Shown in pieces: positions 46,966-63,903 of a stretch of 64,000 bases of DNA (positions are counted from its first letter, which is position 1; each line of letters begins with the position of its first letter). The notes under the pieces were generated by a model. The model was not told where the DNA came from. It worked only from the letters and a program-made list of their open reading frames with translations, and did no database searches. Made by a program: the position numbers and the translations under genes. Source of the DNA: an uncultured Nitrososphaerales archaeon (lineage in GTDB: Archaea; Thermoproteota; Nitrososphaeria; Nitrososphaerales; Nitrososphaeraceae); the NCBI GenBank assembly GCA_963713605.1, contig CAVQMO010000010.1, forward strand, positions 800,001 through 864,000. Direction: 5' to 3'.

Positions 46966-47107
46966 ATGAATGCCCTTTGTGAAAACGTTCTTTAAATAAA
47001 TCTGTGACTTCTACTTTCGATTATATTTAATCAAATTGACCTTAAATGTATAGGCTATCAATATTTAGAAGATGGCAAAACATAACAAGAAAAGAAAAAA
47101 ATTATGA

Positions 47108-47977
47108 TCAGAATACGACACTCATATTAGACAGCCTTTCCAAGTAGCTTTTAGGAAGACTATTTTGTAACTTTCCAAGCTCGTCTTTTGACCTATTAGA
47201 ATAGTCTAGATAAAGATCTTCCATCTCAGTAACGATCTCCGAAGAGGTATTGTTCTTTCTTATCAGAGCATTAAAAAGCCTGTCTTCGTTGTTCCAATCA
47301 ACTAAATCATCATGGATTTGATATGCAATTCCAAGCAAATGTCCGAATGCTGCCATCGAATGGATCTCATCTTCTGTTCCTCCTCCAAGTATGGCCCCTA
47401 TCTTGGAAGATGCTTCAAATAATGAGGCGGTCTTATTCTCCAATACCTGTATATAGTCACGTATGCTAATATCTGGATTCTTTCCCATTTGGATCTCCAT
47501 CATCTCACCCTCTGACATCTTTATCGCGGCTTTAGACAATTCGCCTGAAACTGTTGGATCATTGACTTTTGATCCAATATTAAGTATTATACCCAATACG
47601 AAATCTGCGGTCAAAATGCTGCTGTTATACCCATACTTTACATGGAAAGAGGGTTTGCCTCTGCGCAAATTCTCCTGATCTATTATATCATCATGGATGA
47701 CTGACTCTGTGTGTAAGAGCTCTATTGCTGATGCTGCCAAAAAAATATCATCGGTTAGATTTGAATTATCACGGTTTGAAATCTTGATGCTTTCAGCAGC
47801 TAATAAAAGAATTAAAGGCCTGATTCTCTTACCTCCCTCACAAGCGTAAATTAATGGCCCATAGAACTCTGACCATGAGTATCTGCCCAGCTCGCTCATT
47901 AGCGAGTTGTCGATTTTTGACAGGTAATCTCCGACCAAAGCTAGGACCGGATCTGCTCCTTGATTTCTCTTACTCAA
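47108..47977 (-). CDS. Polyprenyl diphosphate synthase (second trans-prenyltransferase)
   Basis: GGKRIRP, HDDIID...RRG, KTA, YQIHDD. Confidence 0.88.
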   Translation of the reverse strand: MSKRNQGADPVLALVGDYLSKIDNSLMSELGRYSWSEFYGPLIYACEGGKRIRPLILLLAAESIKISNRDNSNLTDDIFLAASAIELLHTESVIHDDIIDQENLRRGKPSFHVKYGYNSSILTADFVLGIILNIGSKVNDPTVSGELSKAAIKMSEGEMMEIQMGKNPDISIRDYIQVLENKTASLFEASSKIGAILGGGTEDEIHSMAAFGHLLGIAYQIHDDLVDWNNEDRLFNALIRKNNTSSEIVTEMEDLYLDYSNRSKDELGKLQNSLPKSYLERLSNMSVVF

Positions 47978-48051
47978 GCCTAAATCAGTGCCTTAGGTAT
48001 CCAATGCATAGGTTCGGTTATTAATGCTTTTTACATATTTCTTTGGAGGTG

Positions 48052-48159
48052 TGCTCCGGCCGGGATTTGAACCCGGGATCTGCGACTCGAAAGGCCGCAA
48101 TGCTTGACCGGACTGTGCACTGGCTTTTGATATTAGCCTAAACTCTACACCACCGGAGC
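48052..48159 (-). tRNA. tRNA-Glu(UUC) with 32-nt non-canonical D-loop intron (48113-48144)
   Basis: Spliced product GCTCCGGTGGTGTAG|TCCGGTCAAGCATTGCGGC-CTTTCGA-GTCGCAGATCCCGGGTTCAAATCCCGGCCGGAGCA folds as a cloverleaf. Confidence 0.9.
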
Positions 48160-48309
48160 ACGTATGACCTGTTTGTGGCTTCCAATAAAATCCTTTCCTG
48201 AGGGAGAAATATTCAACGAGAAAGAACTGGATCTATTTTGGAAATGGTAGCGAAATGATGTAATGACTAAGGATAGGTTTTTCTATAGGTTCCTAAGTAT
48301 TCATTTAAT

Positions 48310-48993
48310 GTGGCGCTAATAATACACTCCTTGGATGATAATATTCAACAGAAGAGTTTGTTGAAACACAAATTCTACCAGCTGTGGTCGGCGGGATCAC
48401 TTTCTATGGAGGACTTGAGAGGGTATTCTAAGGAATATTTTCAATTGGTTAAAGCTGTCCCAGATTTTGTCCGCAATGTACTCGAGCAAGTACCGCTAGA
48501 AGATGAGCAAAATTTTGAACATGTTAATACGATTAAACGTAACTTGGAGGAAGAGATGCAACATGTAGCTCCATGGGTTTCTTTTGCAGAATCAATAGGC
48601 GTAACTCGAAACGACCTATATGATTATGAATGCTCTAAAAAGACCAAAGATGCAGTTCTGAATATGAGCTGGCTGACGCGTAGATCTTTAGCCTCAGGAA
48701 TATCGACTCTGTACACTTTTGAGAAACAGTTACCTGAAATAAGTGCAAAGAAGATCGAAGGACTGGTGAATTTCTATGGTATTCAAAATGATAGGGCATT
48801 AGACTACTTTATGATTCATCAGAAGGTCGATATTGAGCACGCGGAGATTTGGCGTTACTTATTGGAATCGATGCCTGTATCATCTCACAAAACGATTTTA
48901 GACGCTGCCTCAAAGTCACTAATTTACCAGAATATGATATTAGACGGTGTCTGTGAGACTTACCTCCCGGAAAAGCAGCAGTTACCAAATTAA
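48310..48993 (+). CDS. CADD/PqqC-like heme-oxygenase-fold dimetal protein
   Basis: H.FY..W..G.L..E.L..Y...Y, NLEEE..H, YTFE, H..VD..H. Confidence 0.82.
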   Translation: MALIIHSLDDNIQQKSLLKHKFYQLWSAGSLSMEDLRGYSKEYFQLVKAVPDFVRNVLEQVPLEDEQNFEHVNTIKRNLEEEMQHVAPWVSFAESIGVTRNDLYDYECSKKTKDAVLNMSWLTRRSLASGISTLYTFEKQLPEISAKKIEGLVNFYGIQNDRALDYFMIHQKVDIEHAEIWRYLLESMPVSSHKTILDAASKSLIYQNMILDGVCETYLPEKQQLPN

Positions 48994-49473
48994 GTCTAAT
49001 TTCCAATCGCTCAAGTAAAATTTCGTAGCTGGCCTCGCTAACGAAAACGTACAGCAAACAAGGTTTTATGAGCACAAAAAATCTGGTATACGGGACCTAT
49101 TTACTTTCAAGTCAAACTGTGGATGTACTGAAATATTAAATCGGCTACACAAAAAGTAGTCGACAAAATATTTTGTTAGACCGCCATAATTACTGACTGG
49201 ATATTATTAGAATTTGCCACTTTCATGGAAGTAGTAAACTAAAATGTTCTAATAAGATGACAAACCAGGTGTCGGTACGATTCTTAGTAGGACTCTGTAA
49301 AAGCCTAGTCTCATTTCGGTCAGATAAGGGTGAAAGTAACGTCGACTTCTCGTCATATATCAGTCATTTAACCGTCATATTACCGTCGTTTGGCAATTTA
49401 CGCTCATTCAACCCTATGTAATTCAGCATGGGGTGGGCTAATTTTTTTATTTCTCATTCTTTAATAGAGCTCA

Positions 49474-50334
49474 ATGGGCGGAAAGATACCTCAGCCTATA
49501 AAATTGGAGGTCATTAGAAGGTGGTTACGTGGATACTTTAGAGATGACATTGGAACTGTAAGTGGAGTAATACAAGAATGCGGGCATGATGATGAGGATT
49601 TTGGGCTATTGCGAGGAGTAGCTGTAGAACTCAGGGTCCGGGGCATGCAAGTAAAGGACTTTGCGCCCCTATTCAGATTGAAGAGCCTGTTAGAAGAAAA
49701 GGAAGTACAACTCGAAATACATCAGAGCTACAATTTATTCTTTGCATACAAAAAATTTGAATCAATTATCGTGTCCTTAGAAGTACTCTGTTTCAAACAT
49801 GGTATGCCGATGGATCAATTTTTTGAACGCGTTAGAGAACTCTACTTACAACTTGATAGTCTTGGTATTTCCGTAGAAAGATTACCAGAATATTTTGAGG
49901 ATCAGAAAAAAGAGATCCTACGTTTCCAATCTGAAATCAAAAATGAAGTAGAACAGTAAGGAGCGACAATGTATCTCTAACGCGAGTATCAAACTAATAT
50001 GTCGGCATATAGATCTGCAATTAACGAGCCGGAAATAATGACTAAAGAGAAAGATTCATGTCGAAGTGAACTTGATTATATAAGAGAAAAATATCACCAA
50101 AAAGTTTGGGAGACGAAAGAAGGAGGATACGAATTGTATGCCAATCCTGAAGAAGTAAACAAGGCCAAAACGGAACTCAGGTCTGAGATAGGCGGCGATC
50201 ATTATGCTTCCAGATTAAACAATCCGGGTTTAAAGCAGATTGTTCTAGATCTTTATCGCCGTCCTGGTAAATATGTCGAATCGATTAAAAAAATTATTGA
50301 AAATTATGATCTAGTGCACAAACAATCTATCTAG
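49474..50334 (+). pseudogene. Decayed Nitrososphaerales HTH/coiled-coil family gene
   Basis: MGGKIP..IK..VIRRWL.G..RD.I..GTVS HTH-like start with an apparent deletion; split into two ORFs. Confidence 0.5.
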
Positions 50335-50574
50335 CAGTGAAACTATCGTGCTATTAATAAATCAATGTAGAATTCTACCAAGACGTTGAGTATTTTTCTC
50401 AGTCGGTGTAATCTTTCATTTCATTAGCTGTGGTTAGCAATATTCGCTGGTCAAGGATAAACCGTTCTAAACATGCCAGTTTGAAGTTCAAGCTCGACCG
50501 ATATTCTTTTGTAAGAAATGGCACAATGAGGAAGTCAAACATTTTAATATCGAACTACTTTAGGACATTTTTGT

Positions 50575-50648
50575 GGGCCCATAGCTCAGCCTGGTAGAGC
50601 GACCGGCTCATAACCGGTCGGCCAGGGGTTCAAACCCCCTTGGGCCCA
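50575..50648 (+). tRNA. tRNA-Ile2(CAU) (agmatidine-modified type)
   Basis: GGGCCCA/TGGGCCC-A acceptor and ACCGG-CTCATAA-CCGGT arm resemble archaeal tRNA-Ile2 rather than Met. Confidence 0.85.
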
Positions 50649-50661
50649 CTTTAAAGTGGGT
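50640..50661 (+). repeat. attL, 22-bp direct repeat TTGGGCCCACTTTAAAGTGGGT
   Basis: Exact copy at 63769-63790; overlaps the last 9 nt of the tRNA. Confidence 0.9.
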
Positions 50662-50689
50662 TCAAAACGTTTAAAGCTAGGGCGATGCA

Positions 50690-51901
50690 ATGTACATAAC
50701 GTATATGTTCCGGGGTAAGACATTTCAACTCTCGTTACCTGGCCAATCTTATCGTATATTCATTGAGGGTCTCAAGTCCCCAGTCACGAAAGCCGCATAT
50801 AGTTATGCTCTTCGAAAATATATGAACTATCTAAATATTACAAATCCCGATGATTTACTAATCCATCAAGAAAATCCAAAGATTATACAGAATGAAATAA
50901 TCGAGTATTTGATACAGTTGAAAAATCCTCCACACTCATTGCGATATGCCACACGAAGTCAGTACCTGGCGGCAATCATGACTTACTACGAACTACACGA
51001 TGTACCACTAAGCAAGAAAAAAATTTATAGATATCTCGGGGAAGAAGAGAGACCAATTGAGAACAGGGGCTACACCACCGAAGAAATAGCAAAAATGCTG
51101 GAAGTATGTGATGAAAGAGCAAGAGCAATCATTTTGCTCCTCGCTTCAACCGGTATTAGAATTAGAGCTATCATCGATCTAAAACTAGAAGACCTCGTAA
51201 TTATACCCGACTACCGTATGTATCATTTAAGAGTATATTCAGACTCGAACCAGCGATATCTAACTTTTACTACTCCAGAAGCAGCTAAAGCGATAGATGT
51301 TTACCTGAAATATAGAGAAAGATATGGTGAAAAATTAACATCCAAATCTCTGCTTTTTAGAGACCAATTTGATCGAGAAGATGTTGTTTCTATACATGAT
51401 GTTAAACCACTTAAACTCCGAACTGCCGAGCGTCTAGTATCACGTACAGTAGAAAAGTCAGGAATCCGTACAGTAGAAAGAATCACAGAGCTGCATAGCG
51501 AGAAAGGGAAAATTAGAAAGAACGTTAAACTTACAGCAGGATTCAGAAAATTCTTTGATACTCAGCTGATATATGCTAAAGTAGAAAAGCAAACAAAAGA
51601 GCTATTTATGGGTCATAGCATTGGTTTAGACGACCACTATTTTACTCCTGACAATACACATGTACTACATGAATATCTTAAAGCTGTCGACTATCTGACA
51701 ATAAATGAAGAACACCGTTTACGCTTAAAATTAGACGAAATAACCAAAAAGAAAGATGAAATTGAAGTTATGGAACTCAAGCATCGAGAAGAGATTGGAG
51801 ATATCAAACAACAGATGAATCAACTCATGTTTATGGTTCAAAGAAATCCAAGATTGGCAAACATAAAGCCTGAAGTGTTGATAGACAGGAGCTCTATCTA
51901 A
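50690..51901 (+). CDS. Tyrosine recombinase/integrase
   Basis: LLASTGIR (R), TAGFRKFF (xxxR), MGH, HY (catalytic Tyr), C-terminal coiled tail. Confidence 0.9.
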   Translation: MYITYMFRGKTFQLSLPGQSYRIFIEGLKSPVTKAAYSYALRKYMNYLNITNPDDLLIHQENPKIIQNEIIEYLIQLKNPPHSLRYATRSQYLAAIMTYYELHDVPLSKKKIYRYLGEEERPIENRGYTTEEIAKMLEVCDERARAIILLLASTGIRIRAIIDLKLEDLVIIPDYRMYHLRVYSDSNQRYLTFTTPEAAKAIDVYLKYRERYGEKLTSKSLLFRDQFDREDVVSIHDVKPLKLRTAERLVSRTVEKSGIRTVERITELHSEKGKIRKNVKLTAGFRKFFDTQLIYAKVEKQTKELFMGHSIGLDDHYFTPDNTHVLHEYLKAVDYLTINEEHRLRLKLDEITKKKDEIEVMELKHREEIGDIKQQMNQLMFMVQRNPRLANIKPEVLIDRSSI

Positions 51902-52728
51902 CCACTTAATCTTTTTGCTAATTTAGCCCTATATCTCCATTTCTTAATAGTATTTTCGAACTGTTCCATATGTTCTGAAGATCGCTGCCGGTAATCTCTA
52001 ATATCGGCCATCCATTTTAGAAATGTATCTTTCAATTCTTTATCGGATTTGAGAATTATCGTTAAAAAGTCAATTGGTCTTTGGACATAGATTTCATTAT
52101 TCTCATCGTCAACAGTATCTCTGTAGTCTATATCTCTCTCCTCCCCGAGAAAATGCCTACCTCCCTCCGTATAATCCAAAAATTTATTTCTTGCCAGATT
52201 AATATAGAATAAGAAAGTTACTTCGCTGGCTAACGCTTTTTCAATTATTAATAATTCGGAATCATAGACTAATTCGAGATGCTGATCGACCAGGATCGAC
52301 TTCTTGTTATCTTTTAACTTTTCTACAAACTTACCAAGATCTGCATATTTTAGTAGAGCTGCTAGTTCATTCTGTTTTTGTTCCAGGAATAAACTTGTTT
52401 GCTCTCGCTGTTGTCCATCACCACGATTCGGAGATATGTCTGAATCGTTTTTTTTGTCGCCATGATCCAGAACCACCGATAGACCCCGATACAACTCGAA
52501 CAGTCTTGCGGTTGTGTGAAATGCTATTTCTCCCATAGTCTCTTGATATTCTTTAACACCTCCAAGTGTTACACTAACTGATCCAAGTCTTACAGCGCGA
52601 GTAAACTCGTCTACTGTATTTTGATACAATACCGCCAAAAACCATCGGTACGCATAATGCATTGTCTTTGTGAGAAGCGCCCATTTTCCAAAAATTAATG
52701 GTAGTTTGTCGGCATAGTTTCGGGACAT
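51898..52728 (-). CDS. Hypothetical protein, probably 5'-truncated
   Basis: 276 aa ORF convergent with the integrase. Confidence 0.55.
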   Translation of the reverse strand: MSRNYADKLPLIFGKWALLTKTMHYAYRWFLAVLYQNTVDEFTRAVRLGSVSVTLGGVKEYQETMGEIAFHTTARLFELYRGLSVVLDHGDKKNDSDISPNRGDGQQREQTSLFLEQKQNELAALLKYADLGKFVEKLKDNKKSILVDQHLELVYDSELLIIEKALASEVTFLFYINLARNKFLDYTEGGRHFLGEERDIDYRDTVDDENNEIYVQRPIDFLTIILKSDKELKDTFLKWMADIRDYRQRSSEHMEQFENTIKKWRYRAKLAKRLSG

Positions 52729-53329
52729 CTGATCATAAAATTCTGCTAAATCTTCGTATTTTCGTAGTAGTCAATTAAAGTTGGTTCGAATTGCTTTAGG
52801 ATTTTCCTATCGCTAATGAACTTTTCATTGATTAAGAAGCAAAGCCATTCAATATCATTGAAGATACGATAAACCCATTGCTTTCGAGAGATGTCATATT
52901 CAGAACCAGGGGGGTATTTTATCTAACTCAACCTCTGCATCTCTCCAAGAAGACGTGATTATGTTCGTCTGTGTGATTTGATTGTAGTTTCTTCGAACGC
53001 CTAAACGTTATGACAGTGTAGAATAATGCTGCCTGCATATATCCCGGCTGCAATAATTTGAATGTAATCTGACGTTGTTATGACAACCATGCCCTACCTA
53101 CCGAAAGAGTCTGAGTCATTGAAAGGAATGGCAGATTGGGAATTCGTAATAAATTGTTCTGTATAGTAATGTACTAGATGTTAAGTGCAACCACCTATGT
53201 ATGTAGAACCTGTCGATCAAGATTTCAATTGATAAAGGTGTTCCCGACGCAAGATGATGCAAAGTTCTGTCCATATTGTGGACATACAACTGTCGAACCT
53301 CATCAATTCATCTTTTGTTAGAAAATTTG

Positions 53330-53553
53330 TTAACTTTCAGAAGAGACATAGACGGATGTTGCAATGGACTTATACATTGATGTCTAAGAGGTTAATTAAG
53401 ATCCATCCAACATTGCAGAAGCTAGTAGTGTCTCTACGTACTGCAGTGGTATCAGACGAATGGAAGCTGGACAAACAACAAACATCGCATGATGATATAC
53501 TTGATGCATTTAGGCTTGCTCTATGCAACTATGAGCCTCCAAAGAATCTCTGA
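53330..53553 (+). pseudogene. C-terminal fragment of a terminase-large-subunit-like gene
   Basis: IHP...KL..SLRTA...LDK..TSHDDILDAFRLAL. Confidence 0.55.
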
Positions 53554-54536
53554 TTATACTATATCACTACGTGACGGCCACTATATAGTTGATACATTCA
53601 ACCACGATAACGGCAATAGAAGGAGTGTGGAGATTAAATCAGAGTCGTGGGTTCAATTACAAGAAAGAATTCGTGACGCAGCTAGCCTTTGCCTATCTTC
53701 TGCATCTTTTATCTATACCCACAAATCTCTAAATTGTATATTACAACCTATTCAATTTTCTTTAAACCTGTGACAATCGCACTCACATGTGCTTTTACTA
53801 TTATCGCATGCTCTATGATCTTTTGCTATGCATGTAAGGGATAAATTAGGTATTGGAATTGGCCACCTATCTCTTTAATCTCAATGCTACCTAATCTATT
53901 TTCCTTTACAGTTTAGCTCTAGCGTTTCGTCGAGCCACATACACAATTTTTGTAGGAATGTATAGCTATATGCTCCATCCTTATCTTCTGATTTTCATAC
54001 CCCTTCTAGGCATGATTCATCATAACATACCTTTGGCTCTTCTATTTGTTCTTTTATTGCCTGTTGTAATTCCGGTTGTAACATACTCGGGGTTTTAACA
54101 TGGTTACATGTAACGCTGTTACAACCACATTACTGTTCGTTTGCCAATGCACAAGCAGCAAACGTAAGCAGAGCCACTGGAATACCGCTCAATACAATTC
54201 AGACCCTCATCCAACTAGATATTGAGAGAAACAGAATTGAAAATCTTGGAAGTTAATACTGGAAGTTAATACTGAACTAATAAGACAATATCCAGAAGTT
54301 TATTCTGAGTATACCTTTGATACTATAAATGTGCAAAGAGGTGAAAGTTAACTTGGAAGTGATAGTGTCGTTATTTGTGTCATTCTTAATAGTAAGTGTA
54401 GGAATATTGGGTTATTCTCTGTTAAGAACTGAGAAATGAAATTTTGCTTAAATGTCACTCCCCTCGTCCTACTAGATGCATTCATTCAGTGATCAGTAAT
54501 ACTAAAGAATAAAGATTAATAGACAGTTAAGGTAAC

Positions 54537-54914
54537 ATGACTGACGCTGAAAGGTAAAGAAGATACTATATTCACTATTTTTCTTTTTCATTGCTGGTCT
54601 ATGTGAAATTGGCGGAGGTTACCTTGTATGGCTATGGCTTCGTGAAGACATGAGTTGGGTACTTGGTGCCATCGGTGGGTTTGTCTTGTTTTTATATGGT
54701 ATAGTGACCTACTCTCCAACCTTCTTATTTTCACAGAATATACACAGCTTATGGAGGCGTCTTTATTGTAATGGCTCTGTTATGGGGCATGCTCTTTGAG
54801 AATATCATTCCTGACTTTTATGATATATTGGGAGCCATAATAGCAATCGTTGGGATAGTCATAATATTTTACGTTCCTAGGAGAGGAGAAGAATCACTAT
54901 GGCAGAAAGCATAA
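54537..54914 (+). CDS. YnfA-family small membrane protein, copy 1 (two indels)
   Basis: [17 protein letters not shown] ... R.Y.AYGG.FI read across frames. Confidence 0.75.
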
Positions 54915-55258
54915 TCACGAATAGCCTAGCATTAAACATAGTTACAAGTATCATATTGTTCTTTGTTGCAGCAATTGCTGAAATTGGAGGTGGTTACCTT
55001 GTATGGAAATGGTTACGTGAAAGAAAAGGAGTTGTGTTTGGTCTGTTTGGTGGAGTCATTCTATTCATTTATGGTATCATTCCCACACTGCAACCAGCTA
55101 ACTTTGGAAGAGTCTATGCTGCTTATGGTGGAATCTTTATTGTATCTGCAATTATATGGGGATTTTTTGTAGACAAGAAGAAGCCAGACAGATATGAAGT
55201 CATAGGTTCATTGACTGCTATTCTAGGTGCAATCATTATATTCTACGCTCCAAGATAA
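54899..55258 (+). CDS. ynfA: YnfA-family small membrane protein, copy 2
   Basis: [30 protein letters not shown]. Confidence 0.9.
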   Translation: MAESIITNSLALNIVTSIILFFVAAIAEIGGGYLVWKWLRERKGVVFGLFGGVILFIYGIIPTLQPANFGRVYAAYGGIFIVSAIIWGFFVDKKKPDRYEVIGSLTAILGAIIIFYAPR

Positions 55259-55389
55259 GATAGTAATGAGCGGTTACCCCCCCCATATAACAAACCACCA
55301 TATGTGCCACTAATTATAAAGTAGTATGACTGTAATAGTATACTAGTAATCCCCTTGACAGACGTTTCCTTGCAAGAAAAGATAAACGT

Positions 55390-55921
55390 TTAGTTTATAG
55401 AGACTGCAACTGCAAGAATAACAAATTCTTCTTCATGTGCAAATCCCAGTATGAATGCAAAACTTGTTATCGACTTCAGGCTTTGTGTTTGTCGTTTCAT
55501 ATGAATATGTATATGTGAATGATGTCCTCCATCCTTATGCCAGTGAGTGTGTTCATGACTTACTTGGAGTGCAGTATCAAAGTTTTTTTCATTATGAAGG
55601 TGTCCATGCTGAGTTTGCTGCAAGTCTTCTCCTTTCTCGCGCCAAAACATATAGGCCAGTATCCCTAGTCCCATTGAGAGCATAACGCAAGTAGAGTTGT
55701 GGTATCTCTATCAAAGTGGTTAAAAACAGATATGCCGCAACAACTACAATCGAAGATACAAAATGAGCACCAGCTATTATAGACGAACTTGTAATGCCAG
55801 CAAGAAATGGCTTTCTGCTACGCATAGAATAAAGCGTCGCTACAGGCCAACCGTGTGAGGGATTTATCCCATGCAGAAGACCAAAGGCCATGATACCCGG
55901 TAGTACGGTGCTAAATGGCAA
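55390..55921 (-). pseudogene. His-rich nickel/cobalt transporter (NiCoT/RcnA-like), frameshifted and 3'-decayed
   Basis: GLLHGINPSHGW, HEHTHWH...HSHIHIH, LGFAHEEE. Confidence 0.7.
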
Positions 55922-55980
55922 CAGGTTACTTTGCCAGTCATTACATGTAAAAATCTTCCTATCCCTATCAAAAAGAAGCC

Positions 55981-56055
55981 TCGTTAGACAAGGAAGCAGC
56001 TAGTCATGATGGTGTCTTTGATGCATTTAGAATGTCACTTCAGTATTGGCATTAG
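55981..56055 (+). pseudogene. Second terminase-like C-terminal remnant
   Basis: SLDKEAASHDGVFDAFRMSLQYWH* aligns with the 53.5 kb remnant. Confidence 0.5.
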
Positions 56056-56085
56056 CGCATCATCATCACCAGCTGAAGAGGTGCC

Positions 56086-56370
56086 CTATTCGGGATGGTA
56101 GGTTCTGCGACCTTCGTCTGTCAGACCAAACTTGTTATCCTCATCCCTATAGATTTGCCCCTCGCCTAGGAACTGCTCTAAGACAATTCTTAGATACAGA
56201 TCCTGCCCCGATGCCTCTTCATTCTTCCAGATAGATTTTAACGGAAACGTAATAGGTTGCGCATTTTGACGCGCGACTTTATCAAGTTCGCACAGACTCG
56301 CCATAAAATATGCTCTATTGATACGATTGTCTCTTACTGGATCATCAACACTAAACCTATCATATGACAT
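56086..56370 (-). CDS. Hypothetical small protein, possibly winged-helix
   Basis: 94 aa ATG ORF ending G.I......LT.EG. Confidence 0.5.
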   Translation of the reverse strand: MSYDRFSVDDPVRDNRINRAYFMASLCELDKVARQNAQPITFPLKSIWKNEEASGQDLYLRIVLEQFLGEGQIYRDEDNKFGLTDEGRRTYHPE

Positions 56371-56819
56371 GTGTATTGATGATGAGCAACTTATTCCTCC
56401 GCTATATTACTTTCTTGTCCTCGAGCAGCTAAGATTTTAATTGTCATCGTAGTTTTCACGCATAACATTACAAATCTAGTCTGCAACTAGACGCCAAGCA
56501 TGGTATTCTACTTTCGCCTCTTGGTTGCTATTCCTGTCATTATCACTTTGCTGTATGAACCCTGTAAAGTTTGTACAATCCATTATGCTGTTACAGTAAA
56601 TGCAAATCCATCTCATAGGTAAAGTATGTACTACGCAGACATTCTTTATATAACGTTCATCTATAGTTCTGAAACAATAGTTTCAGTCAGGGATATTTGT
56701 TATGTTGGTTATGCATGAAACCAGGATGCCTGGCAGGCCCAATTAGATTGACTCTGCAGTTCTCGCATTAATCTGGTTATCAATTCATTCCTGCTACAGA
56801 TGAGGAATCTGTTAATAAT

Positions 56820-57100
56820 CTAAGGCATTTGTGAAGATAAAATGGTTAACTTCTTAAAGTCTCTGACTGGATCTGAAAGCCAGCCAAAAAGATCTTCCAG
56901 AACCTTTTGTTCCATTGGACCTCCAAGAATAGTCTTCCATTGAGATGAAGGATAGAACACATGGCCGAGGTCCGGATATGTTATCAATGTATGATCAGGA
57001 TGTCTTACTTCTGTCAGTTCCTGCTGTAGAAGAAATGCTTGCAGTACGGGGGTGTCTGAATCATTCTTTCCATTTTGTATTAAAATAGATGTATCGTATC
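56820..57100 (-). pseudogene. Alpha/beta hydrolase C-terminal fragment
   Basis: ILIQNGKNDSDTP...TLITYPDLGH.F. Confidence 0.65.
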
Positions 57101-57133
57101 ACTTTTCTTTTTTGATTCTATAAAATAGTAAGA

Positions 57134-57439
57134 CTACTTTTTCTTATCGTTATAATACGACCATAGGTCCTTCATGACTACGTTAAAGTTATCCTGTAGA
57201 CCATCTAGTCTTGGACCCAATCTTTTATCTTCAAGGTGAGTATCGATAACATGTCTGTATGAACTGTCAATCGCTTTTAGGTAAGCGTATACATATGACT
57301 CTAATGGTATATCCCTTGCTGAACTTTCACGTCTTTCACGCTCTTCTAACTCTTTGTACACTGTTTCACCTTTGTTGATTATGATTTCTTCTAGCGTTTC
57401 TTTTCCATTCGACATATTATGTCTAGATAAATTGGACAT
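57134..57439 (-). CDS. Hypothetical protein
   Basis: About 100 aa ATG ORF. Confidence 0.45.
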   Translation of the reverse strand: MSNLSRHNMSNGKETLEEIIINKGETVYKELEERERRESSARDIPLESYVYAYLKAIDSSYRHVIDTHLEDKRLGPRLDGLQDNFNVVMKDLWSYYNDKKK

Positions 57440-57685
57440 AGATATAAAATATCATGTACCCAGTAACCATTCTTGAGATCGAACAGTTAAAATTTAACTA
57501 TGCTCTCATGGAATACCAGCCTGGTCTATGCTCCTGTATCTCCCAATGACATAAAATGAATCATTGAGCTCTTCTTCCCCATCAGCATCCCCCTAATCAG
57601 CGTGCTAGTGCAGTAGGAGTAATAGTAGCTAAGCTAAGCTATAATCGCGGTCCAGTTTATATAGAATAACTAATCAACATTACGA

Positions 57686-57933
57686 ATGTCTTACAGTACG
57701 CGCAGGAGTCATGGCGGCTTTAATAAGGGCTCCCCTATTCAGAAGCCAATCGAAGTAGACATCAAGGTAAACAATACGAAGTAGACATCACAGAAATAAG
57801 TAGAAAGGGAGATGGCATAGCCAAGGTCCAAGGGTTCGTGGTATTTGTAGAAAATGGAAAAGTTGGAAATAAGATAAAGGTAGAGATAAAGGAAGTAGCC
57901 GATAGGTTCGCTAAAGCAACAATTGTGGTCTAA
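57686..57933 (+). pseudogene. Single-TRAM domain RNA-binding protein with an 8-nt insertion
   Basis: KPIEV[gacatcaa]GKQYEVDITEISRKGDGIAKVQGFVVFV...ADRFAKA. Confidence 0.8.
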
Positions 57934-58043
57934 GCTGTATACCGGAGTTACCTCCAACTCTTATGACAGTATTTAAATGTAGTTTGTGCGGAAAGCATTT
58001 TCAAAATCAAGATGACCCTACGTCATCAGCGTTTTGAGAGTGG

Positions 58044-58922
58044 TCAATAGAACAAAGAAGTATGAAGTTGATGTAAAATCTGGGAGGTACTGGTCGAAGA
58101 AATGAGATAATTAACTTTATCACTCTCCAAATCTATACTCTTAGACGGAGGAAAGACATTATCAAGACAGTTTCTAAGTTGCTGCGTGCACGCTTCTAGG
58201 CATTCACTAATCCCATCGCATTTAGGAGCTGCATTACTCCATTGTTCAATACATCCAATGATATTTGCTGAAAATTCGGTCATTTCATTCATGTACACGC
58301 TGGAAGAAATAATATAGTTGCTAATACTTGGAAAAGTTCTTCGACAGTATAATATAAAATAAAAAGTTGTCTTTAAAGAAGCATTAATGCTAATGCTAAA
58401 TACGATGTTTGAAAATAGGGGAGTCTTTTGGTCTTCTAGATTTAGTGCGTCGTTCGTAAGACAATGAACACTGTCAGTTAGTTGAGGTAAATCATTGCCG
58501 ACATATCTGAGAACGTTTGAGATGTGTTTCTCACCTAGAATTTTGTTATTTTTCAAACAATGAAATAGCTTCAAAAAAGACGGCAGAAAGGTTTTGATTT
58601 CGTCGTAAACAATAGCCAGTTCGTGAAGATCGTTCAAAGCCCAGAACTCCTCTAACAAGTTTTGGACTTCTGATGCTGACATATCTAATTCTATGACTAC
58701 GTCAACTGGTTTTTTGCCCGTTGAAAATAGGAACAAAGCTTGTGTATCTTTGGACTTATTTTTGACGTCTTTCGTTTTATCATTTTGACCATCTATTTTC
58801 CGTATGATTTTCCCAATATCTGTAAATGAAACATGTGCTGCATGAGCAATCTCACGAATGGCCTTACCTTCCCGATGAAGCTTAAGCTGCTCTTTATCTC
58901 GTCAGTTTAATACCACTTGCAA
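58044..58922 (-). pseudogene. Decayed HTH-containing Nitrososphaerales family gene
   Basis: LHREGKAIREIAHAAHVSFTDIGKII...SKDTQALFLF..GKKPVDV.IEL; in-frame stop near the start. Confidence 0.6.
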
Positions 58923-59261
58923 TAGGTATTATTGGTTATCATTACAGATAGCTTTTTCTGCCTGCTATCACTTGCTACTGTTTTGAGTCTGATACTACAG
59001 ATTAATATCAACTGTTATTTTGTACTGTCTTATATCCACGACGACTATTCATGTACACCATTCATGTACGCTATTAATGTACAATATGACTAACGGCTTA
59101 AAGAGATCTTCATTTATGTGGATTCATACTTATAACACTACTAGTTTAATCTCGTATCTCTTCTAGCGAATAGTACATAATGATAGTCTGATTCATAGTA
59201 TGTAGTCTCCTAGTAGAATATTTCAGTCAGTTAATATAGGCAAATTTACTATATATAATAG

Positions 59262-59489
59262 ATGTCCCAAATATTTGAAGATTGTATAAGATTATTCTAT
59301 ATTCGCTGCGAGGATGTAGGATTGGACTGTAATTGCATTATTTATGGAAACACGGAAGAGAAAGTCGCGAATCAGACATTCTTGCACATGTTCGAATATC
59401 ATGCAATAAATCAGGAGGAAATGACCACATGTATGAGATTGAAGATAAAAGAGAATATGCAGATACATTCTCATAATGATCAGCAGTAA
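59262..59489 (+). CDS. DUF1059-like small metal-binding protein
   Basis: C.DVG.DC....G.TEE.V.....H...H. Confidence 0.65.
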   Translation: MSQIFEDCIRLFYIRCEDVGLDCNCIIYGNTEEKVANQTFLHMFEYHAINQEEMTTCMRLKIKENMQIHSHNDQQ

Positions 59490-59902
59490 CGGCATTCAAT
59501 GTGGTCTGCAGGCCTATGGACAAGAGGCTCTAGAATTAAATAGAGCAGCTCTAGAAAATGTCTCATAAAAAATAACTCCGATAATTATTTTATCATAACT
59601 TTATAACCATCTTGTATGACGTTTGGCTTAGACAGGCTTTTAATAGGCCAGAGGTCCAGTCAAACATGACTTGCGTTCTGCCCAATACCGTGAAGTCGCC
59701 TCATTTAATCAAAAAGGTTGCAATCCCGGGGATATGGGTAGATTAAATATTTAGCATCCAGACATCATTGCTGTATTACATGAATGAATGATGAGCAGTT
59801 CTCATCTCTTATCCACCTATTGTGCAGGTTGTATTGCCTGCCTTGGTTGTGTTACAGCGTCTGCGTCTGTGTCGGATTCTAGCCAGATTCTAAATCTATC
59901 GA

Positions 59903-60340
59903 TTAAACCATTTGAGAATAAGTCAATCCATTGAAGGACTCGAACAATAGCTGATGTGAGATCGTAAATGTTCCACAATTTTCTTGGGGGCAAGTTTCAA
60001 TCCGAAAATCGCTATTAATGGAAATTGGACTTTGTAACCCTGTAATTAGAACAGTATAAGCATTATAGCGTCTTTTCGCCATCTCTAAAGCTCTTACGCT
60101 GAAGGTTTTGGTTCCTCGGTGTGAAAACACAACGACAATATCATTTGGAGAAACAAAGTATCTTGAGTTGACAAAGTCGTTGCTTTGTATTGCAGTGGCA
60201 TCCATTTGTACATGCTCTCTCCATAAGAATTCAGCGATTTTAGCAGCCCAGAAGCTGCTGCCAATCCCGATAAAGTAGATTCTTTTAAAGTCAAGGTCTG
60301 ATAATCCAGAAGGAAGTGGAATATCTATACCCTTCTCCAT
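59903..60340 (-). pseudogene. SIS (sugar isomerase, GlmS-like) domain, truncated
   Basis: GIGSSF.AA, SHRG.K, one SIS domain only. Confidence 0.65.
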
Positions 60341-60496
60341 TCAGAAGGTTGATTGAGGATATTAGTCTCATAAAGAAAAGCCATGGAGATTGATATGATT
60401 TATTGTCTTGGACGGTAATAAAATAAGCTTATGATATGGTACCAGTATTGATATGATAATGCTTAAAGGCTAGGAAATTTGTTTACTTTACAATCC

Positions 60497-60826
60497 ATGT
60501 CTATAGATGAAAGGTTAAATCAATTTCTGAAAAATGCTAGAGATTGGGAAAAGAAGGCTACTAACATACCCGGTTTATTTTTGCTTAAACTTCCTGGCTG
60601 GAGAGGCAACCCACCATCTATCGTTTTCGAGATAAATCCTGTTGATGCTTCTGGTTCACCCACAAAGAAAAGAGGAGTTGTTGTACGATCTGCTGCAGAA
60701 CTGGAATGGATCAAAGATATATTATCAAATCCCAAGACTGCTGAATTAGCAGAAAAGATGGACAAGGTAAATCCTCCGAAAAAAGAATCTCTATCCAGGA
60801 CCGGCACAGACATATTTGAAGTCTAA
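60497..60826 (+). CDS. Conserved hypothetical protein
   Basis: EINPVD..G.PTKKRG; start placed at MSIDE. Confidence 0.6.
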   Translation: MSIDERLNQFLKNARDWEKKATNIPGLFLLKLPGWRGNPPSIVFEINPVDASGSPTKKRGVVVRSAAELEWIKDILSNPKTAELAEKMDKVNPPKKESLSRTGTDIFEV

Positions 60827-61024
60827 GTGAGGATATTAGAACGAAGTATTAAAGAATACTCTTCTTGGATGTATATGTTATTATTAGTCATGAGTCATAC
60901 TCTCAACATATGCTTTCAAAACTTCTTTGTTGTATGACTTATTGTTTACGAAAGGTAAGTTCCTATAAACTAACTCATAAATACTTACTGATTATAATCG
61001 AAACTAACTAGGAAATAACTGATT

Positions 61025-61576
61025 ATGATATATAATTCCAAATTATTAATAGAATGCCTGAAGCTAGAGTGCTTACCATCACACAAACTCAATTTGTATT
61101 ATTCAACTTCTTCTAGCCTTGGACATAATAATCCATCTTTCACAGACAGGATAATTAGTAATACTGCAACCGCTGCTAAATCTTCTACGTCTGTCGATAC
61201 TAGTAACAAAAGGATTCTAATAGTTGATGATGAAGTGGATATCACATTATTCTTCAAGATAACTCTAGAACAAGCGGGTTTTATTGTAGATACATACAAT
61301 GATCCATTGAGATCCTTATCTAACTACAGGGCAGGAAAATATGATTTGCTATTGCTCGATATTAGAATGCCACATATGAATGGATTTGAATTATATGGAA
61401 AGATCAGACAAATTGATGATAAAACCAAGATATGTTTTATGACTGCATATGAAGAATACTACAACGAGTTCAAAAGAATATTTCCAGATTTACAGGAAGG
61501 AGAATGCTTTATTAGAAAACCAATAGGTATGGATGACCTGATTAAAACTGTGAAATCACATTTGAATTACGACTGA
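61025..61576 (+). CDS. Stand-alone response regulator receiver
   Basis: ILIVDDE, LLDIRMP.MNG, TA, RKP; true start probably downstream. Confidence 0.88.
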   Translation: MIYNSKLLIECLKLECLPSHKLNLYYSTSSSLGHNNPSFTDRIISNTATAAKSSTSVDTSNKRILIVDDEVDITLFFKITLEQAGFIVDTYNDPLRSLSNYRAGKYDLLLLDIRMPHMNGFELYGKIRQIDDKTKICFMTAYEEYYNEFKRIFPDLQEGECFIRKPIGMDDLIKTVKSHLNYD

Positions 61577-61863
61577 ATTACCACAGGAATAGATGACACA
61601 TACTCAAATAGCGAATCAACAGTTTTATCATATGCTTCCATATTTGAGAATCTCTGGATTCAATCAAAAATGATTAATGATAATATACTATCATAATACC
61701 TACTGACAAAACATTACCGAGGTATTAACGATCAAGTTTGGAAAGGAGTTTACCTTTCGTAATTGTTATGATAATAAATTTAATTCTTAGTATGGTATTG
61801 AATGTATACAAATAGTAACAGTAGTGTCCCTCGCATCCTACTAATTATTTACTAATTAAGCGT

Positions 61864-62232
61864 TCAATCTCCCTTATCAGCTCCTTTATTCCCAATAGGT
61901 TTACGAATGAATAACTCTTTGTCCAAGGCACAATAATCTCTAGTTCTAAACTCTTTATGGTAGAGTTCAGTTGCGGTAAGAAAACAAGTTTTAGCATTTG
62001 GATCTATTTCTTTTATTTTCCCATGTAATTCAAAGCCATTCATATCTGGCATTTTGATATCAAGCATAATCAAGTCATAATAATCTGGTTTGAAACTTGA
62101 CAATGCTCTTCTGGATTCATTATAAGTTTCAACTTCATATCCATAATATTCCAAAGACATTCTATAATACAAGGTAAGATCAGATTCATCATCTACTACC
62201 ATGATTCGTTTTCTTTTTACTTTATCATTCAT
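61864..62232 (-). CDS. Stand-alone response regulator receiver, last helix lost or frameshifted
   Basis: VVDDE, MLDIKMPDMNG, TA, RKP. Confidence 0.85.
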   Translation of the reverse strand: MNDKVKRKRIMVVDDESDLTLYYRMSLEYYGYEVETYNESRRALSSFKPDYYDLIMLDIKMPDMNGFELHGKIKEIDPNAKTCFLTATELYHKEFRTRDYCALDKELFIRKPIGNKGADKGD

Positions 62233-62539
62233 TAATTAAATAGGCAGCCGCCTTTTTTCTTCGATCCGATAGTCGTAGTTGTGATGTTTTTGACTGATTA
62301 TTTACTATAGTAAAATCTGAAATAACGATTAGGAAAGGGGAAGATAATAATAAGCATAGTGTCTGCTGTGGTTATAATAGTTTCCATATAGATTCCGATA
62401 ATTTAGAATTCTACATTTACCCTTCTAAATTATCGTTATGATTTATCATCTTGTGACCCTATTTTCTGCATAATGTTAGAGATATTCTTTAATTCTTCAA
62501 TTATCTATGGCTGTGTACTCATACTGATTGAATACGCAA

Positions 62540-62880
62540 GATAGAGAGATTGCAGATAGGATCTCCCACCATGTAACAATCACTTCATCTCCATCAGTGG
62601 CTGCAATTTCTGCATTAAACGAATCTGAATCATTAGTGTAATTTTATTCCCGAATATTGAACTACTATCCGCCGAAGCTCTGAAAAATACTTCTAAGTTA
62701 TTATTTGGCATGTTCTTATCTGTAGTCCATACGTTTTTTCCAGAGGTAGCAATTGGTGGAGCTTGCAGGAGGACACTATATGCATCGCCTACCTTTAATT
62801 ATTGAAATTGTAGGACTGTGATATGCCGATCAATTAAACTTAATAATACGAGCGTAGCTGTTGAAGTTCGGGGTAACTTC
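62540..62880 (-). pseudogene. Decayed sialidase/BNR-like secreted-protein fragment
   Basis: APPIATSGKNV...EVFFRAS.D....FGNKI read on the minus strand, with stops. Confidence 0.4.
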
Positions 62881-63768
62881 ACAATCTAATTTGAAACGAT
62901 CTTATAATAGCTCAACTCATATTGAAATTAGCGCCATACTGCGGAAACGAAAATACTGATAAACATGGTTAGTTCCCCATTGTAATAGTAAAGACTTTGG
63001 TTATTCGGTCGTCATAGATTTATTTATTTCTGTGTTTCAATCCATTCAAGCCAGTTATTATTGGAACTAACTCCATAATAAAAAGTTCCATTCCAACACA
63101 AGCCCCAATGAGGAGTACCAAACTACGTTTTCATTCTTCTCTCATTAGTAGCCCTCACCGCAAAACGCCGGACAAGCTGAAGCTGATGAGCTAGAGCTTA
63201 AAGTCGTAGACGTAAAGCTTGAGTCATCGCGCTGGCAAGTATATCTTTCTTTGCTCCGGTTTACCGTCTTTGCTGTTCGTTACCCATTCACATTCATTTA
63301 GGAATTCATTGATGTATACACTCTCCCTCTCCTACTGCGACTTCACCTGGAGAGAACTGCATTTTTACAAAGAAGCTCTCTGACATATCGCTTTCAGATG
63401 TAACGGTGGATCATTTGGAGCTGTTTCCCAATTTCTCATCCACTCAAAAGCACGAGACGTCATTTCTTCTTTCTTATTCTGGCAATAGGAGCGTGGGTAA
63501 CAGTAAGAAAACAAAATAACCGAAAATAAGAACACTTAATGCTGTACCGGCATAGCCTACCCTTTTCAAAGCTTTTTCATGTTCCATACCCTATATATAG
63601 ACACATAGTTACATATAGATCCCTGTTTATGGTCGTATATAGTCCAAATATTATGGTTGTTATCGCAACTGAGTCTCACATGCATAGAACATAGTGGGTT
63701 CAAGTTGTATTGAACAGATCTCCTCGTGGATCATTGAAAACACTTTAAAGTCTTGCCAGTTAAACGTT

Positions 63769-63790
63769 TTGGGCCCACTTTAAAGTGGGT
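63769..63790 (+). repeat. attR, 22-bp direct repeat
   Basis: Identical to 50640-50661. Confidence 0.9.
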
Positions 63791-63792
63791 CC

Positions 63793-63903
63793 GAAGAGAT
63801 TGGAACAATTAAGCAACAAATGAATGAGCTGATGATAATGATCCAACAGAATCCAAGATTGACAAATATAAAACCAGAGATATTGATTGATAAAAGTCAA
63901 TAG
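63793..63903 (+). pseudogene. C-terminal remnant of a paralogous integrase
   Basis: EEIGTIKQQMNELMIMIQQNPRLTNIKPEILIDKSQ* versus integrase tail EEIGDIKQQMNQLMFMVQRNPRLANIKPEVLIDRSSI*. Confidence 0.8.

Follow-up and report, generated by a model that had tools for sequence, protein, structure and literature searches.

A tyrosine-integrase element at the 3' end of a likely tRNA-Ile2 gene in an uncultured Nitrososphaerales archaeon, with an apparently damaged right junction

Elements integrated in thaumarchaeal genomes have attachment (att) sites with a median length of 17 bp (Krupovic et al. 2019, PMC6563490). One of them, NitAQ6f-E1, lies at a tRNA-Met(CAT) gene, and its 15-bp att consists of the same acceptor strand as the site described below (PMC6563490 Table S2). 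SNJ2 has a 14-bp core at the 3' end of tRNA-Met (PMC5861418), and the pNOB8 att measures 40–50 bp (PMC8371274). The junction of the T and acceptor stems is a recognised crossover subsite (PMC4383910). Among the archaeal integrase motifs, the SSV type has a K and the pNOB8 type a Y (R..YxxR..Y) (PMC8371274). Here we describe a 13.1-kb unit behind a CAT-anticodon tRNA gene in a 64,000-nucleotide (nt) stretch, hereafter the window, of an uncultured Nitrososphaerales archaeon (GCA_963713605.1, contig CAVQMO010000010.1, positions 800,001 to 864,000). Judging from sequence comparison, we consider it very probable that an element of one tyrosine-integrase subfamily entered the 3' end of tRNA-Ile2, with the exchange inside the tRNA, and that its right junction was damaged later.

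Like thaumarchaeal tRNA elements (PMC6563490), it has an intact tyrosine integrase, a short att at the tRNA 3' end and no viral or conjugation hallmark. An integrase adjoining a tRNA, a displaced 3' tRNA fragment and strain-specific cargo place it among the tRNA-targeting cryptic elements of Thaumarchaeota. Its class is thus a known one, and its target is conventional too, lying within the tRNA and being cut and restored. It also resembles the Islander ‘J’ subsite islands (Hudson et al. 2015, PMC4383910; Williams sublocation III) in its T/acceptor crossover, displaced 3' tRNA fragment, tandem islands and damaged fragments. The novelties are modest: a mirrored four-motif attP (the attachment site of the circular form), an altered catalytic motif and a hotspot used by several integrase families. 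In the parts of PMC6563490 compared, neither mirrored attP arms nor a tRNA used by many integrase families is described, and its table has no Nitrososphaeraceae element at a CAT tRNA. Our literature search found no account of this hotspot or of a mirrored attP, which supplements or subscription papers may hold, and retrieved nothing on Nitrososphaeraceae integrase/tRNA genomic islands.

The original prediction of an integrative element at tRNA-Ile2 was well founded, as the CAT tRNA at 50575 is followed by a tyrosine integrase open reading frame (ORF) and a displaced 3' fragment. The acceptor stem of this tRNA begins with GGGC, as in tRNA-Ile(GAT), and the genome's other CAT tRNA begins with GCCG. 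Because of this resemblance and difference, and by what we take to be the identity rules for Ile2, the gene is likely tRNA-Ile2. The features of the site are:

50575..50648 (end 50648-50649), + strand: tRNA gene with a CAT anticodon (ARAGORN), probably tRNA-Ile2, the integration target
50626..50647, + strand: putative core site in the tRNA, with left arm 50626-50633, spacer ACCCCC 50634-50639 and right arm (acceptor 3' strand) 50640-50647
50648..50665, + strand: element-borne right arm of the left attachment site (attL), made of the palindrome ACTTTAAAGT and an outer GGGTTCAA motif; its first base is the tRNA discriminator
50690..51901, + strand: tyrosine integrase, 403 aa as called, probable start 50705 (Pfam PF00589, fold, 120 homologues, dN/dS)
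63734..63759, + strand: D arm, at which the element actually ends on the right, a mirror of 50640-50665; 63742-63751 is a second ACTTTAAAGT
63760..63768, + strand: 9 nt in place of the 6-bp spacer, identical in reverse complement to the 9 nt that follow the attL arm (50666-50674)
63769..63790, + strand: second copy of a 22-mer, in which a displaced copy of the acceptor stem is joined to what is left of the right arm of an older, related element (same family)
63793..63903, + strand: last 36 codons of another, older integrase from the same subfamily, a C-terminal remnant (77% identity across 35 aa in tblastn)

The recombination centre had been placed at the palindrome downstream of the tRNA gene. 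This did not hold up, as the palindrome travels with the integrase. Of the 63 family tRNA loci, 61 extend at least 17 nt past the gene. In eight of these the 17 nt agree with the palindromic flank at 13/17 positions or more, and in the others at 10/17 or fewer. All eight have an integrase 69–84% identical to ours, 49–101 nt downstream. At the other 53 loci no integrase match exceeded 40%, some of these contigs ending early. Since the TTTAAA palindrome is present only at 8/61 tRNA loci, each with a close integrase, it belongs to the element and not to the target.

The opposite end gave the same picture. At 46 metagenome loci the D arm is followed by the tRNA end, and the next 17 nt form 23 distinct flanks. 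One fits the palindromic flank (16/17) and the rest match it at 9/17 or fewer; the palindrome is lacking at 45/46 D-arm junctions. Elements of the D type thus insert ahead of whatever follows the acceptor strand, which places the exchange at or before the discriminator. D itself differs from the tRNA up to its last ~three bases. Together, the flanks show that exchange falls within the last ~18 nt of the tRNA.

A search with the arm alone, for which the tRNA sequence was not required, returned ten loci. In four of them the tRNA end follows almost perfectly, and in one it has a small deletion; three diverge after all or some of ACCCCC, and two at the arm edge. The palindromic arm came next in 0/10, and in 5/10 the match to the tRNA ended at the spacer or directly behind it. 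Because of these boundaries we centre the shared stretch on ACCCCC (50634-50639), which in the tRNA is flanked by GGGTTCAA and TTGGGCCC, an inverted repeat at 6/8 positions. Two arms around an asymmetric 6-bp spacer are the textbook core geometry. The core boundaries were drawn from the flank types in 165 junctions and from the arm-only search, and crossover at the 6-bp ACCCCC between T-loop and acceptor stem is the most likely reading. The 3'-end location is described without symmetry in the relevant part of PMC8371274; here a 6/8 dyad surrounds the spacer. The acceptor 3' strand probably is a recombinase-binding arm, as proposed; against the proposal, the tRNA end is cut and restored as usual. 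With exchange placed inside the tRNA 3' end, the junctions foreseen at 50649/50650 and 63778/63779 are probably wrong.

The D arm and the attL right unit are mirror matches at 19/26 positions, and the tRNA's own left side reaches only 11/26. D is conserved in 20/201 family genomes and at the 46 metagenome loci. In a mirror test of 165 distinct junctions, with 200 shuffles each, left and right consensus arms paired one-to-one (z 4.1, 4.5, 2.9 and 4.0); D paired with the palindromic right arm (z 4.1), and the tRNA side matched none. The pairing holds along contigs: the predicted arm closes a 5.0-kb element of G154 that carries an integrase, a 12.9-kb unit of G105 that keeps a 5' remnant of the present integrase, and the first two units of the present island. 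D was found in 12/20 relatives having the right arm and in 7/130 without it, by a hand count of kin that are not independent and include the unpublished G035, which carries no claim by itself. Double-palindrome junctions occurred in 3/151 genomes, with the spacer intact in two and mutated in the third, and also at L169; two further matches of that search were D with another flank. The pairing shows 50640-50665 and 63734-63759 to be the ends of the element, mirror images of each other, and from them we infer that attP is a mirror-image four-motif site. This gives a sequence-level map of an archaeal attP and its target site (attB), which a review treats as poorly defined for archaeal integrases. 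It also offers candidate positions at which a thaumarchaeal integrase would cut, and potentially a tool for integrating DNA into ammonia-oxidising archaea.

The element would thus be the newest unit of an island, inserted into the tRNA-Ile2 3' end ahead of an older member of its family that has decayed. Its integrase would cut around the 6-bp ACCCCC in the T-stem 3' strand, with the T-loop side and the acceptor strand as the two core arms. The circular form would carry four similar 8-bp motifs and, to the left and right of the spacer, an ACTTTAAAGT palindrome (8-10-8, spacer 6, 8-10-8). Integration would restore the tRNA end. The right junction would later have lost its spacer, probably in one step by a template switch at the hairpin that copied the older element's arm, and a deletion would have taken most of the older integrase. 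The unit should no longer excise normally, and its integrase could still act on other intact sites.

At the right end, the 9 nt stand where a spacer-like 6-mer is kept in 22/23 distinct non-metagenome arms (the 22 others), partly by search design. The outer motif of the 63769-63790 copy differs, the other five exact copies continuing with TCAA. The integrase remnant just behind it is closest to homologues P0005 and P0006 and points in the same direction as the intact gene. The right site is, by this comparison, apparently fused by a deletion to the tail of an older integrase. Normal excision by tyrosine recombinases should fail without spacer homology. Because the right spacer is replaced and the site fused to a remnant, normal excision of the 13.1-kb unit is probably blocked and the element probably immobilised. 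At other places, distant from any tRNA copy, the D arm was seen to run into unrelated sequence close to the predicted cut or exactly there (L333, L336, L340, C10:542737, C10:1029896, C15:18777); these could be off-target or homology-relaxed joining, or the result of later deletion.

The original prediction saw a complete element with both att ends in the 22-mer. The exact direct repeat at 50640-50661 and 63769-63790 was confirmed, as many matches occurring in 0/100 shuffles. Completeness was not, as the 22-mer has six copies and its right site lacks the spacer and runs into the remnant. Five of the exact genome copies are on the window's contig (one inverted) and one on C13; identical outer arms on both sides were seen in 0/6. 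The repeat reaches 22 bp only through the successive insertion of two elements from one family. The locus thus cautions that the longest exact repeat may misplace att cores in tandem arrays. The short tRNA-only portion of the repeat, taken as unusual, is ordinary, as thaumarchaeal elements commonly have a short att confined to the acceptor strand (PMC6563490 Table S2). Folding of the sites gave modest z-scores (-1.4, -2.4 and 0.0).

Several points weigh against exchange inside the tRNA followed by damage on the right. The cut positions rest on symmetry and boundaries, and the spacer was required in the search patterns for the 46 metagenome loci and for the D arm in 201 genomes. The 9-nt replacement could be an assembly error at the hairpin, and another copy (C13:21959) shows homopolymer-like extra bases. 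Locus L161 has another right arm and then D, and in two 1.6-kb modules the palindromic right arm is closed by a C-type arm. No empty tRNA site was truly identified among the family tRNA loci. Another reading, in which the 13.1-kb element is complete and can excise, with recombination at the TTTAAA palindrome outside a tRNA that is never cut, would agree with the exact direct repeat and with the 10-6-10 dyad of 50640-50665 (26 bp), which looks like a dif/lox site. Its target would need the palindrome, however, which is lacking at 53/61 tRNA loci and at 45/46 D junctions. Its symmetric spacer should yield head-to-head products, contrary to the absence of paired identical outer arms in all six exact copies, and the outer motif of the right site has been removed by deletion. 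Flank mosaics largely refute this explanation, and we regard it as very unlikely.

An off-target or inverted event at the right junction is very unlikely too. In that case the edge of D would have been cut and then linked, with no homology, to part of a right arm in inverted orientation, and the 13.1-kb unit would never have had a normal right attachment site. D arms joined to unrelated sequence at the edge do recur (the loci listed above except L340), and 63760-63789 aligns to attL in reverse at 28/30 positions. Yet the inner arm is an acceptor-type copy in direct orientation, the integrase remnant points the same way as the intact gene, and an inversion needs more changes than one template switch and one deletion. 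Hardly credible is a chromosomal dif-like site with a Xer-type resolvase, despite XerA being the best structure and sequence match and despite the dyad with its 6-bp centre. The XerA model NF040815 scores 45.7 against a cut-off of 220, and the site has six copies here and occurs in only 21/151 family genomes, dif being single-copy (PMC8371274). On this score, copy number and patchy distribution, assignment to XerA/dif was refuted, unless a host XerA acts on the site.

The 50690-51901 ORF belongs to the tyrosine recombinase superfamily. PF00589 scores 35.4 bits against a cut-off of 27.1, and structure comparison matched the fold to XerA, IntI4 and Cre. The gene is uninterrupted, as predicted. 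Its start is probably not 29 bp after attL: close homologues and the alignment consensus begin at residue six, so the true start is more likely 50705, 44 bp past the repeat. Against three homologues the ratio of nonsynonymous to synonymous substitution rates (dN/dS) was 0.05–0.08, with dS near saturation, and a fourth comparison was saturated; the gene evolves under purifying selection. Residues R157, R286 and Y317 are invariant in 120/120 homologues and H309 in 119/120. At the box-II His position (HxxR) this protein has Ala283, and the homologues have A/T/S/V/G/I in 120/120 and His in 0/120. Position 187 in the beta-hairpin, where a conserved catalytic Lys is expected, is N/K/R/M among the 120. 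Conserved basic residues stand at 276, 277 and 287. The structure model has an N-terminal beta-hairpin (residues 4-13), then a helical core-binding domain, and at the C-terminus a long helix. Its active site is of low confidence, with a predicted local distance difference test (pLDDT) score <50 at 262-292, so that the catalytic loop is unplaced and the model cannot name a substitute for the box-II His. We would guess from the model that the N-terminal hairpin reads the palindrome.

The whole integrase ORF lies on the attL side, as in eight relatives as far as their contigs extend. The suggested pNOB8-type assignment fits in this respect, the gene being likewise unsplit by integration in pNOB8- and SNJ2-type integrases. 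It fails on the motif R..YxxR..Y, since the enzyme has AxxR and Tyr occurs in 0/120 homologues. The motif fits neither the SSV (K) nor the pNOB8 (Y) pattern, and no SNJ2-like accessory genes were recognised beside the integrase. A split gene of the SSV type was rejected, as the gene is whole, with its own C-terminus, which is duplicated (77%) after the right site, and PF16795 was below cut-off. Membership among the integron IntI enzymes was rejected as well (TIGR02249, 30.1 bits against a cut-off of 265).

The 13.1-kb unit is, as far as site spacing and coding density indicate, the tRNA-proximal and newest module of a ~200-kb tandem accretion island. In a looser site search the 206 kb behind the tRNA held 14 junction-like matches, two of them one palindromic site counted on both strands and one looking like chance, against one in the contig's other 924 kb and five in the 1164-kb contig C1. 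Low coding density persists to about C10:1,050,000, and conserved genes return near S3Ae at 1,054,342. The interval from tRNA to S3Ae is 204 kb here and 11.3 kb in one relative, the shortest found. The tRNA-Ile2 hotspot accounts for about 5% of the genome (204 kb of 4.09 Mb). In length the array greatly exceeds most Islander tandems, of which only four have three or more members (PMC4383910). The Dehalococcoides ssrA arrays (PMC3146451) are similar in having tandem islands behind one RNA gene, an element-specific motif by the repeat, islands without their own integration genes and cis-mobilizable elements. They differ in being bacterial and in using serine recombinases and a transfer-messenger RNA, where the present archaeal island has tyrosine integrases from several unrelated subfamilies.

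When relatives were checked for the empty tRNA-Ile2 site that had been expected, other elements occupied the same tRNA point. No conserved shared downstream gene emerged from the 63 family tRNA loci (43 with >=800 nt downstream compared), and at 80 S3Ae loci (59 with >3 kb upstream) no CAT tRNA lay within reach. The site had 0 matches in viral contigs, and none of the public runs (contigs only, n=22) held half the words of window positions 47000-56900. Just past the window, in the second module, a TFIIB-like gene was recognised by eye in pieces (C10:~864350-865260). Three 236-bp copies (C12:387986-388221, C2:88666-88901 and C13:10091-10326) share 94% identity with the sequence on the left of the C10:932275 junction. 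Their alignments stop at the acceptor-strand position; arms of this system are thus scattered outside the island. A frameshifted integrase (C1:551214-552234) lies directly behind tRNA-Lys(CTT) at C1:551042-551135.

Other flank types go with other integrases, one type 25–30% identical to ours and one of 450–460 aa without a useful BLAST match to it. The 450–460 aa family has a C-terminal Cys motif and uses tRNA-Ile2 (L039:3053-4510), with a broken copy in the island (C10:883495-884460); it is missed by Pfam at 0.001 and matches PHROG 1 (E 7e-12). Between adjacent sites we found 14 modules <6 kb, in a search that could see only short modules and to which deletion relics would look similar. Twelve of these had no match to the three integrase query types, one of the twelve (M11) having a broken integrase of a fourth type, and about six of the 14 were single-gene modules.

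One integrase-free module of ~1.6 kb lies between two att junctions and has one alpha/beta-hydrolase gene, intact in L119 and split in C13, with neighbours that vary by genome:

C13:21959-23532; C10:~889000-890642 (inverted); L119, L113, L121, L123: ~1.6-kb hydrolase module

Further tRNA-Ile2 modules of 1.3–1.4 kb have no integrase match and mostly one gene (L024:3035-4380, L067:1583-3012, L040:1707-3012 and L165). They encode a metallo-beta-lactamase fold (L024), zf-UBP and a cyclase (L067) and unassigned products (L040, L165). A tentative and rather doubtful idea is that tRNA-Ile2 of soil Nitrososphaeraceae is an integron-like capture platform. At least three to four integrase subfamilies with their own mirrored attPs would share the tRNA end, integrase-free single-gene cassettes of 1.3–1.6 kb (hydrolase, metallo-beta-lactamase fold, zf-UBP/cyclase) would be inserted and moved in trans, and the present subfamily would act without the box-II His and maybe without spacer homology.

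The cargo is fragmented, as the original prediction had it: ORFs of >=100 aa cover 38%, compared with 79% in window positions 1-48000, and the G + C content is 36.9% compared with 42.0%. Paralogous DNA elsewhere in the genome matches 54% of it. Relatives had been expected not to carry the 13 kb in synteny, and this was so. In 13 genomes of the genus the whole is not shared, only pieces of up to about 1.25 kb among the matches listed. No capsid, packaging, replication or transfer genes were seen among the cargo ORFs (14 in Pfam, 11 in NCBIfam, 8 in PHROGs). A provirus or conjugative element was rejected, given no hallmark gene in the cargo and no viral-contig match for the site. The cargo features are:

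51898..52728, - strand: 276-aa ORF, convergent with the integrase; no match in Pfam, NCBIfam or PHROGs
54899..55258, + strand: YnfA/UPF0060 small membrane protein (PF02694, E 4e-43), with a broken paralogue just upstream (from reading frames)
55390..55921, - strand: two neighbouring short His-rich ORFs, weakly resembling a fragmented nickel/cobalt efflux transporter (NF007454, E 0.0014, far under cut-off)
59262..59489, + strand: DUF1059 protein (PF06348)
59903..60340, - strand: SIS (sugar isomerase) domain fragment (PF01380; glmS-like partial matches)
61025-61576 (+ strand) and 61864-62232 (- strand): two convergent response-regulator receiver ORFs (PF00072)

A stretch similar to 51898-52728 also lies behind the integrase in a relative (G076). 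Upstream of the tRNA, between it and a conserved TENA-like gene, two short ORFs without a family match (49474-50334) are matched in only some relatives of the genus, and may be an older insertion. The 735 bp with the broken and intact YnfA-type genes (54524-55258) are 95–97% identical in G091, G116 and G098, above the remaining cargo, which suggests a recent exchange of this piece.

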